Assembly (NCBI GenBank): GCA_028701115.1
Contig: JAQVRJ010000001.1
Span: forward strand, 1 to 59,524
Length of the DNA stretch: 59,524 bases
Reading direction: 5' to 3'
Source: Clostridia bacterium
GTDB taxonomy: Bacteria; Bacillota; Clostridia; TANB77; SIG350
Position 1 is the first letter of the stretch. Every line of letters begins with the position of its first letter. The notes beneath the pieces were generated by a model that searched no databases, had not been told where the DNA came from, and worked only from the letters and a program-made list of their open reading frames with translations. Both the position numbers and the translations under genes were made by a program. This document shows positions 19,497 to 47,226 of this stretch, one piece after another.

Positions 19497-19727
19497 AAAA
19501 AAATAACCATATATCCTATGTATAGGACGATATAGTCGTGGTGCCACCTAAATTTGTAATATACATTTATATGTATATTACCTTATGCATTATAACCTAT
19601 GCTACAGGTTTAACTTGTTTCGTTAAAAGCTCATAAGTGGATTCATAGATAACATATATTGATTTTCACCAAACATCAACTCTCTGAAATAAATTAACTA
19701 TTACTATTCTTAATCTTTGCAATTATA
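19497..19727 (-). promoter_or_regulatory. T-box leader (tRNA-Ser responsive) of serS
   Basis: The minus strand shows stem I signatures (CAGAGAG...GGTGAAA) and the T-box sequence AGGTGGCACCACG (complement of 19537-19549). A terminator hairpin and T-run follow. The candidate specifier is TCC (Ser) in a GAATCCA context (complement of 19639-19641). The upstream promoter is TTGAAA-N17-TATAAT (19733-19761, minus strand). Confidence 0.8.
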
Positions 19728-43721: not shown

Positions 43722-44252
43722 ATGGGTATATTAGATGATTTCGGTAAAGTTGTTTCAGATACATATAAATCTGCAACAAAAACATCTGGAAAGATTATTG
43801 AAGAAGGAAAATTGAAATTATTAATAATGGATAATGAATCTGCTATGAAAGAAATATATCAATCAATAGGTAAAGAATATTGTGAAACATATTTCAAAGG
43901 TGAATTATTAAATAATGATAAATTTCAAAATGAATTTGATGAATTAAAAAGAATGCAATTAGAAAATAGTCAAGCACAAGAAAGAATACTTGAATTAAAG
44001 AGTGTAAGAAAATGTACAAATTGCGATAAAGAAATAGATTTGAATAGTACATTTTGTCATTATTGTGGAACTAAACAACCTGATTATGTTCCTACTAAAC
44101 AAGATAATGAAGAAGAAAATATTGCAGATGTAAAGATTGAAGCTGAATCAGTTGAAGAGGTAATCGTTTCGGAAATACAATGCAAAAATTGTAACGCAAA
44201 TATTAAATCTAGTGATGATTTCTGTCCAAATTGTGGAGCTAAAATAGAATAA
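43722..44252 (+). CDS. double zinc-ribbon protein
   Basis: CTNC..CHYCG and CKNC..CPNCG follow a coiled-coil N-terminal half. Confidence 0.55.
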   Translation: MGILDDFGKVVSDTYKSATKTSGKIIEEGKLKLLIMDNESAMKEIYQSIGKEYCETYFKGELLNNDKFQNEFDELKRMQLENSQAQERILELKSVRKCTNCDKEIDLNSTFCHYCGTKQPDYVPTKQDNEEENIADVKIEAESVEEVIVSEIQCKNCNANIKSSDDFCPNCGAKIE

Positions 44253-44354
44253 TATAGTTATAATGTCAATAATATATATGGGGTGCCATATGTATTATTT
44301 TTTATCTTTGTGGCTGGAATATAGCCATTAATTAATGCTATTTCAGTAGTTAGG

Positions 44355-44383
44355 TTGCTAAAAATTTAATTTTATTGTATAAT
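44355..44383 (+). promoter_or_regulatory. promoter of array gene 1
   Basis: TTGCTA-N17-TATAAT. Confidence 0.55.
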
Positions 44384-44405
44384 AATAAAGTAATAGGAAT
44401 TTATT

Positions 44406-44879
44406 ATGAAAGAATTTGATCCTTCAAATTTAGCTCAGAGACATGTCTTATGTAAAGATAATACTAAGATTCAAAATGTTCCTGATGATTGCGGAGAAAA
44501 CTGTTTGTCTACTGGTATGATTTATCATATGGAAGATTTAATAGTTAATAATGACCTTACATTAGTTCAATTAAAAGAATTGCCTAAATTATGGTTTTAT
44601 TCAACGCGTTTTGCCGAAGTTGAGTATTATGAAAATTCTAGTGATTTTGATATTCGTGATACTAGAATGCGACATGTTGTTTGTGTTAATAATCAAGACA
44701 TAAATTGGTCTTTAAATGGTAATGCATCACAGCATTTGAAAGTAGGAGAAATCTATCATGCTTTGGGGATTGAAGTTCACGGATTCCATACAAGAGTTAG
44801 TTTACTTGAATTTCCTAAGTTGCAGTTCAATTCAATTAATTTTTCAGAAATTAGCATTTCTGAAGATGAAGAGTTCTAA
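44406..44879 (+). CDS. array paralog 1: uncharacterised two-module protein (internal duplication)
   Basis: 157 aa. Both halves carry RH..C, G.IYH and F.S..F.E motifs. It is paralogous to the next three genes. Confidence 0.8.
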   Translation: MKEFDPSNLAQRHVLCKDNTKIQNVPDDCGENCLSTGMIYHMEDLIVNNDLTLVQLKELPKLWFYSTRFAEVEYYENSSDFDIRDTRMRHVVCVNNQDINWSLNGNASQHLKVGEIYHALGIEVHGFHTRVSLLEFPKLQFNSINFSEISISEDEEF

Positions 44880-44915
44880 AAAAACATATCTTTTTTGATA
44901 TGTAATTTTTTTTTG
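44878..44915 (+). terminator. terminator of array gene 1
   Basis: acatatc-tttttt-gatatgt hairpin, then a T-run. Confidence 0.75.
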
Positions 44916-44994
44916 AAAAATTAAAATATATAGTACTATATAATCTGGATAAATAGTGAATTAATATAGAAATTAGATTATATATTTGCTAATT
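44916..44994 (+). repeat. internally deleted rnpB relic (spacer 1)
   Basis: attaaaatatatag matches the rnpB -10/+1 region. 44928-44994 aligns without gaps to the rnpB 3' end (47117-47183) with 50 of 67 identities by hand count. Confidence 0.7.
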
Positions 44995-45022
44995 TGCATA
45001 AAATCTATATTTGTTGTATAAT
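44994..45022 (+). promoter_or_regulatory. promoter of array gene 2
   Basis: TTGCAT-N17-TATAAT. Confidence 0.6.
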
Positions 45023-45045
45023 TATTATGTAAGTGAAATTATATT

Positions 45046-45519
45046 ATGAAGGATTTAGATTATTTAAATTCTAAATTAAGACATTTACTTTGCGTAGATG
45101 ATTCTAACGCTAAAGTTGGTGTTGATGATAAAGGAGAAATTAATTTAATGGCTGGTATGGTTTATCATTTGCAAGCTCTAAAAGTTTATGATAACTATAC
45201 ATTAGTTCAATTAAATGAATTTCCTGAATTGTGGTTTAATTCAATGCGCTTTACAGAAGTAGAATATTCGAAAGATTTTAGTGATTTCCATATTTTTGAT
45301 TCTAGAATGCGACACGTTGTTTGTATTAATAATGAAGATATTTATTGGTCTTTCAACGATAATGCATCAAAGTATTTGAAAGTAGGATGGATCTATCATG
45401 TATCGGAAGTCGAAGTTCATGATTGGCATACGAGAATTCGTTTGCTTGAATTCTCTGGTTTGCAGTTTCAATCAACACATTTTTCAGAAATTATTTTTCG
45501 TAGGGAAGCTATATGCTAA
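45046..45519 (+). CDS. array paralog 2: uncharacterised two-module protein
   Basis: 157 aa with the same motif pattern in both halves. Confidence 0.8.
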   Translation: MKDLDYLNSKLRHLLCVDDSNAKVGVDDKGEINLMAGMVYHLQALKVYDNYTLVQLNEFPELWFNSMRFTEVEYSKDFSDFHIFDSRMRHVVCINNEDIYWSFNDNASKYLKVGWIYHVSEVEVHDWHTRIRLLEFSGLQFQSTHFSEIIFRREAIC

Positions 45520-45554
45520 CACAACATATCTTTTTGATATGTTGTGTTTTTTTG
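45519..45554 (+). terminator. terminator of array gene 2
   Basis: acaacatatc-ttttt-gatatgttgt hairpin, then a T-run. Confidence 0.75.
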
Positions 45555-45638
45555 AAATAAATTCAAAATGCATAGTAATATATAATTTAAATAAATAATA
45601 AACTAATAGTTAATCTGTCTTATTGATTATTTGCTAAT
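45551..45638 (+). repeat. internally deleted rnpB relic (spacer 2)
   Basis: aattcaaaatgcat matches the rnpB promoter spacer. 45574-45638 aligns to the rnpB 3' end at about three quarters identity with one small indel. Confidence 0.65.
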
Positions 45639-45667
45639 TTGCATAAAATATAATTTTATAGTATAAT
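45639..45667 (+). promoter_or_regulatory. promoter of array gene 3
   Basis: TTGCAT-N17-TATAAT. Confidence 0.6.
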
Positions 45668-45690
45668 TATAATATTAGTAGGAAATTATT

Positions 45691-46176
45691 ATGAAAAAAG
45701 TGAATTTATTATTTAATTCTGAACCAAGACTTGTGTTTTGCGTTGACACTACTGAGGCATTAGATGGTCTTAATGATACTGGACATATCAATTTAATTCC
45801 TGGCATATTTTATCATTTGGATGCTGTAAAAAAAGTTGTAGAAAATGACAAGATTTATTTAGAAGTTGCATTGAAAGAACTCGAAGACGCTTTTTTTAAT
45901 GTAAATCGTTTCGTCGAAGTTGAATATGAAAAAAGGTTTGGTGATTTTGATATTCGTAATCCTAGAATGAGGCATATTGCTTGTGTTAATAATGATGACT
46001 TCATATTTGGTTGCAAAGATAATGCATCAAAGTATTTGAAAAGAGGGAAAATTTATCATGTGTTAGAAGTCCATATTGATATACAAGGCATATATGTTCT
46101 ATTGCATGAATTCCCTAATTTGGAGTTTAATGCAGGACATTTTTCTGAGATTGTTCCCGTTGTTAATGAATGCTAA
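45691..46176 (+). CDS. array paralog 3: uncharacterised two-module protein (most divergent)
   Basis: 161 aa. The first module has RL instead of RH. The other motifs are kept. Confidence 0.8.
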   Translation: MKKVNLLFNSEPRLVFCVDTTEALDGLNDTGHINLIPGIFYHLDAVKKVVENDKIYLEVALKELEDAFFNVNRFVEVEYEKRFGDFDIRNPRMRHIACVNNDDFIFGCKDNASKYLKRGKIYHVLEVHIDIQGIYVLLHEFPNLEFNAGHFSEIVPVVNEC

Positions 46177-46208
46177 AAAACATATCTTTTTTGATATGTA
46201 TTTTTTAT
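46176..46208 (+). terminator. terminator of array gene 3
   Basis: acatatc-tttttt-gatatgt hairpin, then a T-run. Confidence 0.75.
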
Positions 46209-46260
46209 TGACAACAATTCCAAAATGTATAGTAATAGAAATTAGCTTATGGATTTGCTA
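46208..46260 (+). repeat. internally deleted rnpB relic (spacer 3, largest deletion)
   Basis: ttgacaacaattccaaaatgtat matches the rnpB promoter ttgacaataattctaaaatgcat. gaaattagcttatggatttgcta matches the rnpB end gaacccggcttatagatttgcta. Confidence 0.6.
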
Positions 46261-46261
46261 T

Positions 46262-46290
46262 TTGCATAAAATCTAAATTTACTGTATAAT
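46262..46290 (+). promoter_or_regulatory. promoter of array gene 4
   Basis: TTGCAT-N17-TATAAT. Confidence 0.6.
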
Positions 46291-46312
46291 TACTAATCAG
46301 TAGGAATTTATT

Positions 46313-46783
46313 ATGAAGGAAATGGATTTATTTAATTCTAAACCAAGACATGTATTCTGTGTTGACGATACTGAGGCAGAAGATAGTCTTAATGATTATG
46401 GAGAACACAAATTAATTGCTGGTAAGATTTATCATTTGAAAGCTTTAAAAATGGATAATGGTAATCCAGTAGTTAAATTGAATGAATTTTCTGACATGTT
46501 GTTTAATTCAACGCGTTTTGCAGAAATTCAATATTCTGAAGGTTCTAGTGATTTTCATATTATGGATCCTAGCATAAGGCATGTTGCCTGTATTAACAAC
46601 CACGACATGAGTTGGCTTTTCAAAGATAATGCATCAAAGCATTTAAGAATAGGAAAAATTTATCATATGTCTGAGGTTGAAATTTGTGATCGGTATGCAT
46701 TAGTCCGGTTATTCGACATACCTAAATTACAGTTTAATTCAATGCATTTTTCAGAACTTAGAATTTTTAAAAATTATGCATAA
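46313..46783 (+). CDS. array paralog 4: uncharacterised two-module protein
   Basis: 156 aa with the same motif pattern in both halves. Confidence 0.8.
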   Translation: MKEMDLFNSKPRHVFCVDDTEAEDSLNDYGEHKLIAGKIYHLKALKMDNGNPVVKLNEFSDMLFNSTRFAEIQYSEGSSDFHIMDPSIRHVACINNHDMSWLFKDNASKHLRIGKIYHMSEVEICDRYALVRLFDIPKLQFNSMHFSELRIFKNYA

Positions 46784-46785
46784 TA

Positions 46786-46816
46786 AAAACATATCTTTTT
46801 TGATATGTGTTTTTTA
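46786..46816 (+). terminator. terminator of array gene 4
   Basis: acatatc-tttttt-gatatgt hairpin, then a T-run. Confidence 0.75.
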
Positions 46817-46845
46817 TTGACAATAATTCTAAAATGCATTAAAAT
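46817..46845 (+). promoter_or_regulatory. rnpB promoter
   Basis: TTGACA (46817-46822)-N17-TAAAAT (46840-46845), about 10 nt before the predicted P1 5' strand. Confidence 0.65.
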
Positions 46846-46854
46846 ATATATATA

Positions 46855-47180
46855 GTAAATCAGATGATCGTATGCGAAAGCATGAGGAAAGTCCGGGCAC
46901 CATAGGGCGGGGATGCTGGATAACGTCCAGTAAAGGTGACTTTAAGGAAAGTGCAACAGAAAATTACCGCATTACTTTGTAATGTAAGGGTGAAAAAGTG
47001 AGGTAAGAGCTTACTAGTAATATGGTGACATATTATTTTGTGTAAACCCCATTCGGTGCAACACCAAAAATAAATATATATAACGGCCCGTTATGTTTAG
47101 GTAGGTGGCTTGAATTATATAGCAATATATAATCTAGATAAATGATCGTCTAATACAGAACCCGGCTTATAGATTTGCTA
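46855..47180 (+). ncRNA. rnpB: RNase P RNA, bacterial type A
   Basis: GAGGAAAGTCCGGGC (P4 5') and ACAGAACCCGGCTTA (P4 3') are present. So are AAGGGTGAAA..GGTAAGAGC and GTAAACCCC..GGTGCAA blocks. P1 pairs gtaaatc with gatttgc, and P2 pairs agatgatcgt with atgatcgtct. Confidence 0.92.
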
Positions 47181-47186
47181 AATATG

Positions 47187-47226
47187 AAAGACAATAGGAT
47201 AAACCTATTGTCTTTCTTTTGTTTTT
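47187..47226. terminator. bidirectional terminator between rnpB and the convergent genes
   Basis: aaagacaatagg (47187-47198) pairs with cctattgtcttt (47204-47215), then cttttgttttt. Confidence 0.75.

Follow-up and report, generated by a model that had tools for sequence, protein, structure and literature searches.

The window analyzed here, positions 1–59,524 of contig JAQVRJ010000001.1 of the Clostridia bacterium assembly GCA_028701115.1, comes from an uncultivated, AT-rich, Clostridia-like lineage and carries an array of four paralogous protein genes followed by rnpB, the gene for RNase P RNA. The spacers between the paralogs were found to hold relics of rnpB, whose anatomy and origin are the subject of this analysis. 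The paralogs, g1–g4 (156–161 aa each; 44406–46783), lie between a zinc-ribbon protein gene and rnpB; all features given below are on the plus strand unless stated otherwise. g1 (44406–44879, 157 aa) and g3 (45691–46176, 161 aa) were delimited from the open reading frame (ORF) list and the paralog alignment, and g2 (45046–45519, 157 aa) and g4 (46313–46783, 156 aa) from the ORF list. The pairwise identity among the four is 42–54% in protein and 63–72% in DNA. Every paralog has its own sigma-70-type promoter and ends with a nearly identical hairpin terminator of the sequence AACATATCTTTTTTGATATGT, and each such unit of promoter, gene, and terminator is referred to here as a cassette.

The cassette terminator after g1 (44884–44914) consists of a hairpin and a T run and folds with -7.4 kcal/mol (z = -4.05). 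The terminator after g2 (45518–45551) was located by a terminator scan, and those after g3 (46179–46207) and g4 (46788–46816) were located by an exact 21-mer of the g1 terminator that is found again at 46179 and 46788. A promoter scan placed the predicted promoter of g1 (TTGCTA-17-TATAAT) at 44355–44383, that of g2 (TTTGCA-18-TATAAT, equivalently TTGCAT-17-TATAAT) at 44993–45022, that of g3 at 45638–45667, and that of g4 at 46261–46290. The g1 promoter, which lies inside the spacer upstream of g1 (spacer 0), aligns to the same -35 element as the other paralog promoters. Intact rnpB has the best promoter of the region (TTGACA-17-TAAAAT, 46817–46845), with 11 of 12 matches. The RNA itself (46852–47185) is a class A RNase P RNA that matches RF00010 over its full length (model 1–367) at 281.9 bits (E = 4.6e-91), against a gathering threshold of 100 bits, and is followed by a strong terminator with a 13-bp stem (47186–47216, or 47186–47226 in the list of features; fold -18.3 kcal/mol, z = -7.3).

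The spacers between the paralogs (spacers 1–3) were aligned to a synthetic 'gutted' rnpB. They show one layout that is colinear with the intact gene: the cassette terminator, a damaged rnpB promoter, the motif ATAGTA(A/C) that represents the first nucleotides of RNase P RNA, the rnpB 3′ end, and the promoter of the next paralog. The 3′ part of the relic, ∼57 nt long, reads TATATAAT...TTGCTAA and contains the 3′ half of P18 and the 3′ strands of P2, P4, and P1; the -35 element of the next paralog promoter begins immediately after it. In spacer 1, the relic of the promoter and first nucleotides (TTGAAA..TAAAAT..TATATAGTA) occupies 44913–44935 and that of the last ∼57 nt, ending in TTGCTAA, occupies 44936–44992, directly abutting the g2 promoter. 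In spacer 2, the corresponding parts lie at 45552–45578 (TTGAAATAAATTCAAAATGCATAGTAA) and at 45579–45637, the latter with a 3-nt insertion. In spacer 3, the promoter relic followed by ATAGTAA spans 46208–46235, retains an intact TTGACA and promoter spacer, and is identical to 46817–46839 at 20 of 23 positions; the 3′ end (46236–46260) has suffered a further 30-nt deletion between TAATA repeats.

An earlier note on this DNA had described the spacers as internally deleted copies of rnpB, and this description holds: the promoter, the first nucleotides, and the last ∼57 nt are kept in the same order and orientation. The coordinates claimed were all correct, including TTGACA at 46208 and 46817, and the 50 of 67 ungapped identities between 44928–44994 and 47117–47183 were reproduced. 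The copies of the rnpB promoter said to follow each cassette terminator are retained in spacers 1–3 in disabled form, with the -35 to -10 spacing collapsed in spacer 1 and the -10 box removed by a common ∼13-nt deletion in spacers 2 and 3. Consistently, the promoter scan gave 10–11 of 12 to the genuine rnpB promoter and those of the four paralogs alone, and lower scores to the relic rnpB promoters. The deletion sizes in the spacers do differ, as had been stated, but resolve to one common core junction plus small secondary deletions. Likewise, TTGCTAA, placed next to or within the paralog -35 (TTTGCA/TTGCAT), adjoins the predicted element but does not lie within it. The rnpB terminator is missing from every relic, which argues that the duplication reached no further than the final base of mature rnpB.

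The spacers are 14–21% G+C, and the composition-bias correction of nhmmer takes most of the score; both facts would suit the view that low-complexity, AT-rich spacers match an AT-rich stretch of rnpB by chance alone. Local alignments against mature rnpB (46852–47190) were judged by two nulls, 1,000 dinucleotide shuffles and 2,804 real 166-nt segments of the window taken from both strands (501 with <22% G+C; maximum score 35). The score of spacer 1, 54, was reached by none of the shuffles (mean 22, maximum 35) and none of the segments, and the same was true of spacer 2 with a score of 47, so that the similarity is significant against the shuffled AT-rich control for both. Spacer 3 scored 27, a value reached by 19 of the shuffles and 76 of the segments and weak alone; its relic is tied to that of spacer 1 by 34 of 39 identities and by the repeat search (D14), and is identical to rnpB at 30 of 39 positions. 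Spacer 0 is at chance level (score 20, reached by 738 of the 1,000 shuffles and 1,290 of the 2,804 segments). An unguided repeat search recovered the family 44921–44992, 45563–45634, and 47110–47181 (D6), which covers the relics of spacers 1 and 2, as well as a terminator-plus-promoter family at 44880, 45519, 46176, and 46785. The results for spacer 0, and for spacer 3 alone, would again suit chance, but this explanation is refuted for spacers 1 and 2, and the z-score of 20 in a sister lineage, together with a similarity that is colinear and runs in one orientation throughout the spacers, renders it extremely improbable overall. The presence of rnpB relics in the spacers between the paralogs is confirmed.

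Exact-protein look-up retrieved ten contigs from at least six samples, which contain only two haplotypes. Haplotype W is that of the window, and its spacers are identical in four independent assemblies. Haplotype V (contig L005 and others) represents a sister lineage that is ∼94.5% identical to W in the flanking genes and 99.4% identical in rnpB, and is itself identical in six or more assemblies. Recovery of the same spacers across independent assemblies excludes an assembly artefact. At this flank identity, the array has four units in W and three in V, where the paralogs are gA, which is g1-like, gB, which corresponds to g3, and gC, which corresponds to g4; g2 has no counterpart. The spacer between gA and gB contains the best relic of all, with a score of 79 (z = 20.4; none of 1,000 shuffles) and 55 of 66 identities to rnpB; nearly the whole rnpB promoter is gone from this first V spacer. 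The spacer between gB and gC has lost the -10 box by the same ∼13-nt deletion as window spacers 2 and 3, and carries the same 30-nt deletion as window spacer 3, which places the latter event before the W/V split. The four-copy and three-copy haplotypes co-occur in the same metagenome samples (L002/L007 in ENA ERZ27250894; L003/L009 in JGI 3300014206).

The site of rnpB without the array is seen in an outgroup contig, L021. There, the zinc-ribbon gene is followed by an unrelated 303-aa gene, the same rnpB promoter, rnpB (284 bits), and its terminator, and the 3′ side contains the same three minus-strand genes as the window. The paralog array is not present at the L021 rnpB locus. This indicates that the intact right-hand rnpB of the window stands at the ancestral position and that the array is an upstream insertion that subsequently expanded. 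The outgroup loci were retrieved through relatives of the zinc-ribbon protein (∼56% identical); the L021 protein is 56% identical to that of the window.

The boundary of the missing segment coincides with a direct repeat. Intact rnpB contains TATATAG(T/C)AA at 46849–46858, at the transcription start, and again at 47116–47125, in the P18 loop. The 267 nt between the repeats, which make up the entire catalytic core (P1–P15 5′ half), are missing from the relics. All relics that retain the junction, namely window spacers 1–3 and L005 spacer 2, read ATAGTA(A/C)TAT at this point; in L005 spacer 1, the 5′ side of the junction was lost via a nested deletion. The junction had been assigned to the shorter TATATAG (46849–46855, 47116–47122 and, in spacer 1, 44927–44933), and this assignment is borne out with a repeat longer than claimed. 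In L005, the repeat is a perfect 10-mer, TATATAGTAA, and, as judged from the outgroup, T is ancestral at its one variable position. The P18 tetraloop is GCAA in the window (47123) and GTAA in L005 (6811) and L021 (about 3817), both of the GNRA type; this single change breaks the otherwise perfect 10-bp repeat flanking the ribozyme core in the window. The relics thus show colinear similarity to both ends of the parent, in the same orientation, with the junction at a direct repeat of the parent, as is characteristic of duplication-derived pseudogenes.

Sequence decay in the relics is strongly biased. Between 7 and 11 of 17 G/C sites are changed per relic (41–65%), compared with 2–4 of 40 A/T sites (5–10%). 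Such near-confinement of change to G/C sites is what DNA free of constraint shows in an AT-rich genome. All five relics have lost the universally conserved CCCGG of P4, with AACTAG or AATTAG, for example, in its place, and the conserved P4 3′ strand and J-region of RF00010, ACAGAACCCGGCUUA, is not preserved. With the core and CCCGG lost and scores below any threshold, the relics are not members of RF00010. No relic folds better than shuffled sequence (z = -1.4 to +1.2). Orthologous relics of the window and the sister lineage are identical at 33 of 37 positions, which equals the third-codon-position identity of the flanking orthologous genes (0.90–0.92). The relics are 74–83% identical to rnpB, a comparison in which one lineage evolves, and the third positions of the paralogs are 60–70% identical with two lineages evolving; the amount of relic decay would therefore fit neutral drift for as long as that of the paralogs.

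These data bear directly on the possibility that the relics are functional, with the rnpB 3′ end serving the paralogs as a regulator site or an upstream promoter element, or with the fragment being a small RNA. Such a role would be in line with ATTTGCTA, which is unchanged in all five relics and abuts the -35 element, and with the fact that the spacers are better conserved in their terminator and paralog-promoter portions than the coding sequences are. The survival rates, however, predict that ∼2 G/C sites should survive in every relic, and 2 are observed; selective retention of ATTTGCTAA was rejected because the survival of G/C sites equals this chance expectation. The identity between orthologous relics does not differ from that of third codon positions, spacer 3 has lost 30 nt, the predicted g1 promoter sits in a spacer without a significant relic, and there is no stable or conserved fold. 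The relics are also located between a terminator and a paralog promoter and are probably untranscribed. We read the relics as dead DNA with no evidence of co-option, and consider a function very unlikely.

Taken together, we put the probability that the spacers are dead rnpB fragments, generated by tandem duplication and then repeat-mediated deletion of the core, at roughly 0.8. The process would have started from a single cassette located directly upstream of the rnpB promoter. A tandem duplication that began at the cassette promoter and stopped with the final base of mature rnpB, leaving out the rnpB terminator, would have given the order gene-rnpB-gene-rnpB-terminator, and the redundant upstream rnpB could then have lost its 267-nt core by deletion between the 10-bp TATATAGTAA repeats. 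Unequal exchange between units may have changed the array size, leading to four units in the window and three in the sister lineage, while AT-biased mutation would have decayed the relics and small secondary deletions would have inactivated each leftover rnpB promoter. What the sequences show is the homology and its colinearity, the junction within the repeat, the ancestral place of the intact rnpB, and the G/C-biased decay. The order of these events and the former existence of a second intact rnpB are what we infer, and the number of independent core deletions may be one or several, since a 10-bp repeat would give the same junction repeatedly and the common junction is no proof of a single deletion. 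The claim that the duplicated unit included the whole of rnpB and that every extra copy was then gutted accordingly stands in part: the homology and the ancestral position of the intact copy agree with it, but separate gutting and amplification of one gutted copy are not separable. Derived bases shared among the relics in 12 columns were at first suggestive of a single gutted origin; this inference was dropped, as the sharing is not significant under the G/C-site model.

Several observations weigh against duplication followed by deletion, or at least do not favor it. Cmscan detected no partial RNase P match in 44200–46850 at E ≤ 10; of the outcome expected from the covariance model, the one full match was obtained and the partial 3′ matches were not. 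An nhmmer search with rnpB as query and composition-bias correction gave spacer 1 only an E-value of 1.6. Under the G/C-site decay null, the shared derived bases of spacers 1 and 2 are unremarkable (P = 0.54) and those of spacers 1 and 3 give a mild signal (P = 0.02). The -10 deletion groups spacer 3 with spacer 2, but its substitutions group it with spacer 1, and these conflicting signals suggest exchange between spacers. Finally, the relatives provided no case with two intact rnpB copies and no other intermediate, within the very thin sampling of only two haplotypes in the public data reached; the intermediates for which the earlier note had proposed a search were not found, and both haplotypes have one intact rnpB. 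With regard to the first two points, cmscan and nhmmer are insensitive to a decayed, AT-rich fragment of 57 nt, and the shuffle and whole-window nulls were therefore used as the relevant tests. In the same nhmmer search, the sister-lineage relic gave E = 0.0035, and 46177–46238 matched the terminator-plus-promoter part of the rnpB query with E = 3.8e-05.

The missing intermediate would be explained if duplication and gutted junction had arisen together in a one-step complex rearrangement, so that no second intact rnpB ever existed. Two template switches of the polymerase during replication would be involved, one from the start of rnpB to the P18 loop at TATATAGTAA and the other from the rnpB 3′ end back to the cassette promoter. 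The internal junction does lie inside the 10-bp repeat, and a 9-mer, TTATAGATT, located upstream of the first cassette promoter in V, could have guided the second switch. The present data do not separate this course from duplication followed by deletion. Two switches are needed per event, however, whereas duplication and deletion are each common, and the retention of both TTGCTAA and the adjacent TTTGCA is not a clean microhomology join. We regard the one-step course as unlikely.

Genomic islands typically leave scars in the form of truncated 3′ ends of structural RNA genes, such as the tRNA or tmRNA fragments at island borders. On this analogy, mobile cassettes that integrated site-specifically into rnpB might have left the relics behind as attachment-site duplications. 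The paralog domain is indeed distantly related to a phage protein family, phrog_8472. On the other hand, the neighbors (der, plsY, gpsA, the zinc-ribbon gene, the rluD-like gene, and lepA) are all housekeeping genes and include no integrase or recombinase. The relics lie upstream rather than downstream of the intact gene and include the rnpB promoter and first nucleotides, which are not expected in attachment-site copies, and the units are diverged paralogs of one gene rather than different cargo. This origin is highly improbable. Another reading, which we hold doubtful, is that the array was built by rnpB itself, with a phage-derived cassette flanked by two rnpB copies and amplified by unequal exchange between the rnpB repeats. 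The flanking could, on the same doubtful footing, have come about through, for example, single-crossover integration of a circular element with rnpB homology. The faint similarity in spacer 0, at the left edge of the array (anchored test, P about 0.001–0.05), would then be the remnant of the left-hand rnpB, and ATTTGCTAA, next to the -35 element, might have been co-opted into the paralog promoters.

Spacer 0 (44253–44405) contains the terminator of the zinc-ribbon gene and the g1 promoter, with no significant rnpB relic. A weaker resemblance to rnpB had been proposed upstream of g1 (gtggctggaatatagcc); this proposal did not hold up, as unanchored tests place the match at chance level and V does not preserve the motif. 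When the comparison was anchored on the right, at the promoter boundary, in a post hoc test with a borderline outcome for the window, P was about 0.01–0.09 for spacer 0 of the window and about 0.001–0.007 for the last 30–40 nt of V spacer 0 against the relic end. V spacer 0 (L005 4690–4725) holds the 9-mer TTATAGATT mentioned above, which matches the rnpB 3′ end at all nine bases and immediately precedes the first paralog promoter. The similarity could be due to chance, to a left-hand relic in a very decayed state, or to a microhomology on which the first duplication drew.

Pseudogene relics in bacteria can arise when a gene is duplicated in tandem and one copy then loses sequence between short direct repeats, through RecA-independent deletion or replication slippage. 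The rnpB relics resemble such duplication-deletion pseudogenes in that a redundant copy lies beside its parent in the same orientation, the deletion end-points fall in a 10-bp repeat of the parent, and decay follows mutational bias. They differ in that the parent is an essential, normally single-copy ribozyme gene and that the relic is carried as the spacer of a growing protein-gene array. As relics of a class A RNase P RNA (RF00010), they keep recognizable sequence of the P18 3′ half and of the P2, P4, and P1 3′ strands. Partial copies of tRNA and tmRNA genes in prokaryotic genomes are likewise short, non-functional 3′ fragments near an intact gene that can confuse annotation. They result mostly from site-specific integration and lie at mobile-element borders; the rnpB relics, in contrast, have no integrase nearby, precede the intact gene, and still include its 5′ end and promoter. 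Fragments of tRNA genes, an example of such partial copies, are the subject of PMC9897764. In animals, RNase P RNA pseudogenes are non-functional extras beside one functional copy and were recognized by lost promoter elements in the Bcheck survey (PMC2996960). Those pseudogenes are dispersed and largely full length, whereas the relics described here are bacterial and tandem, with ∼20% of the gene left. No published report of bacterial rnpB relics was found in the literature searched, which is weak evidence of absence.

The relics are duplication-derived pseudogenes, an ordinary genomic fossil that involves no new mechanism or system. Their value lies in a clean, datable record of an essential, normally single-copy ribozyme gene being duplicated in a bacterial chromosome and of the surplus being removed by deletion at a 10-bp repeat. 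They explain how a fast-evolving gene array specific to this lineage arose and where its spacers came from, and they provide a readout of mutational bias in an uncultivated AT-rich lineage, in which about half of the G/C sites have been lost and ∼93% of the A/T sites kept. For annotation, such fragments should not be called RNase P genes or novel small RNAs.

At its left end (window 44406–45519 versus L005 4773–5237), the array evolves at a much higher rate than the regions around it. g1 and gA are 79% identical in DNA and 62% in protein, compared with 93–96% for the flanks. Across the paralogs, identity is lower in protein than in DNA, and third positions have not diverged beyond the remaining ones. 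This pattern points to selection that is relaxed or diversifying, or to older paralogs having been lost differentially. Each paralog (window 44406–46783; L005 4773–6471) is built from a ∼70-aa all-beta domain repeated in tandem, and the motif RHV.C..N...G.IYH....V...L.EFP...FNS..F.E occurs twice per protein. No Pfam or NCBIfam family covers the paralogs; the only match was phrog_8472, of unknown function, at E = 2e-05 to 6e-03. The AlphaFold model is of low confidence (pLDDT 61.8), and Foldseek returned only non-significant matches to SH3, Tudor, and KOW-like beta-barrels. In an exhaustive profile search, the two-domain form was limited to three clusters, while ∼160 small, mostly single-domain proteins matched one ∼70-aa domain, and the family is almost confined to this lineage. 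A profile of seven paralogs searched against metagenome contigs yielded no contig beyond one already known, and a word-indexed protein search with g4 yielded nothing beyond its own 97% cluster. The sole match in a genome-contig search with g4, a PurR-like gene, was rejected as a false positive due to the common peptide KLNEFSDML.

The surrounding genes are arranged as a housekeeping run in the order der, plsY, gpsA, and the zinc-ribbon gene, followed by the array and rnpB. The zinc-ribbon gene (43722–44252; Pfam Zn_Ribbon_1 and DZR) is the left neighbor of the array and is conserved in the outgroup. On the 3′ side, a DUF1292-like ORF, a 122-aa ORF, and an rluD-like gene lie on the minus strand, and lepA follows. 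In L021, the 303-aa gene holds the spot filled by the paralog array in the window. Genes encoding proteins of 303–312 aa follow the zinc-ribbon gene in the outgroup contigs L021 (2587–3498), L011 (3563–4501), and L017 (3174–4091); they have no Pfam family, and their products show a hydrophobic N-terminal segment followed by a Cys, which is lipoprotein-like. This gene is missing from the window lineage. Outgroup contigs near this locus also contain a group II intron fragment (L012 45–113; RF00029, 44.2 bits) and an IS21-like IstB gene (L017 4165–5934). Elsewhere in the window, a T-box leader was identified on the minus strand at 19520–19726 (RF00230, 114.6 bits), which has no relation to the relics.

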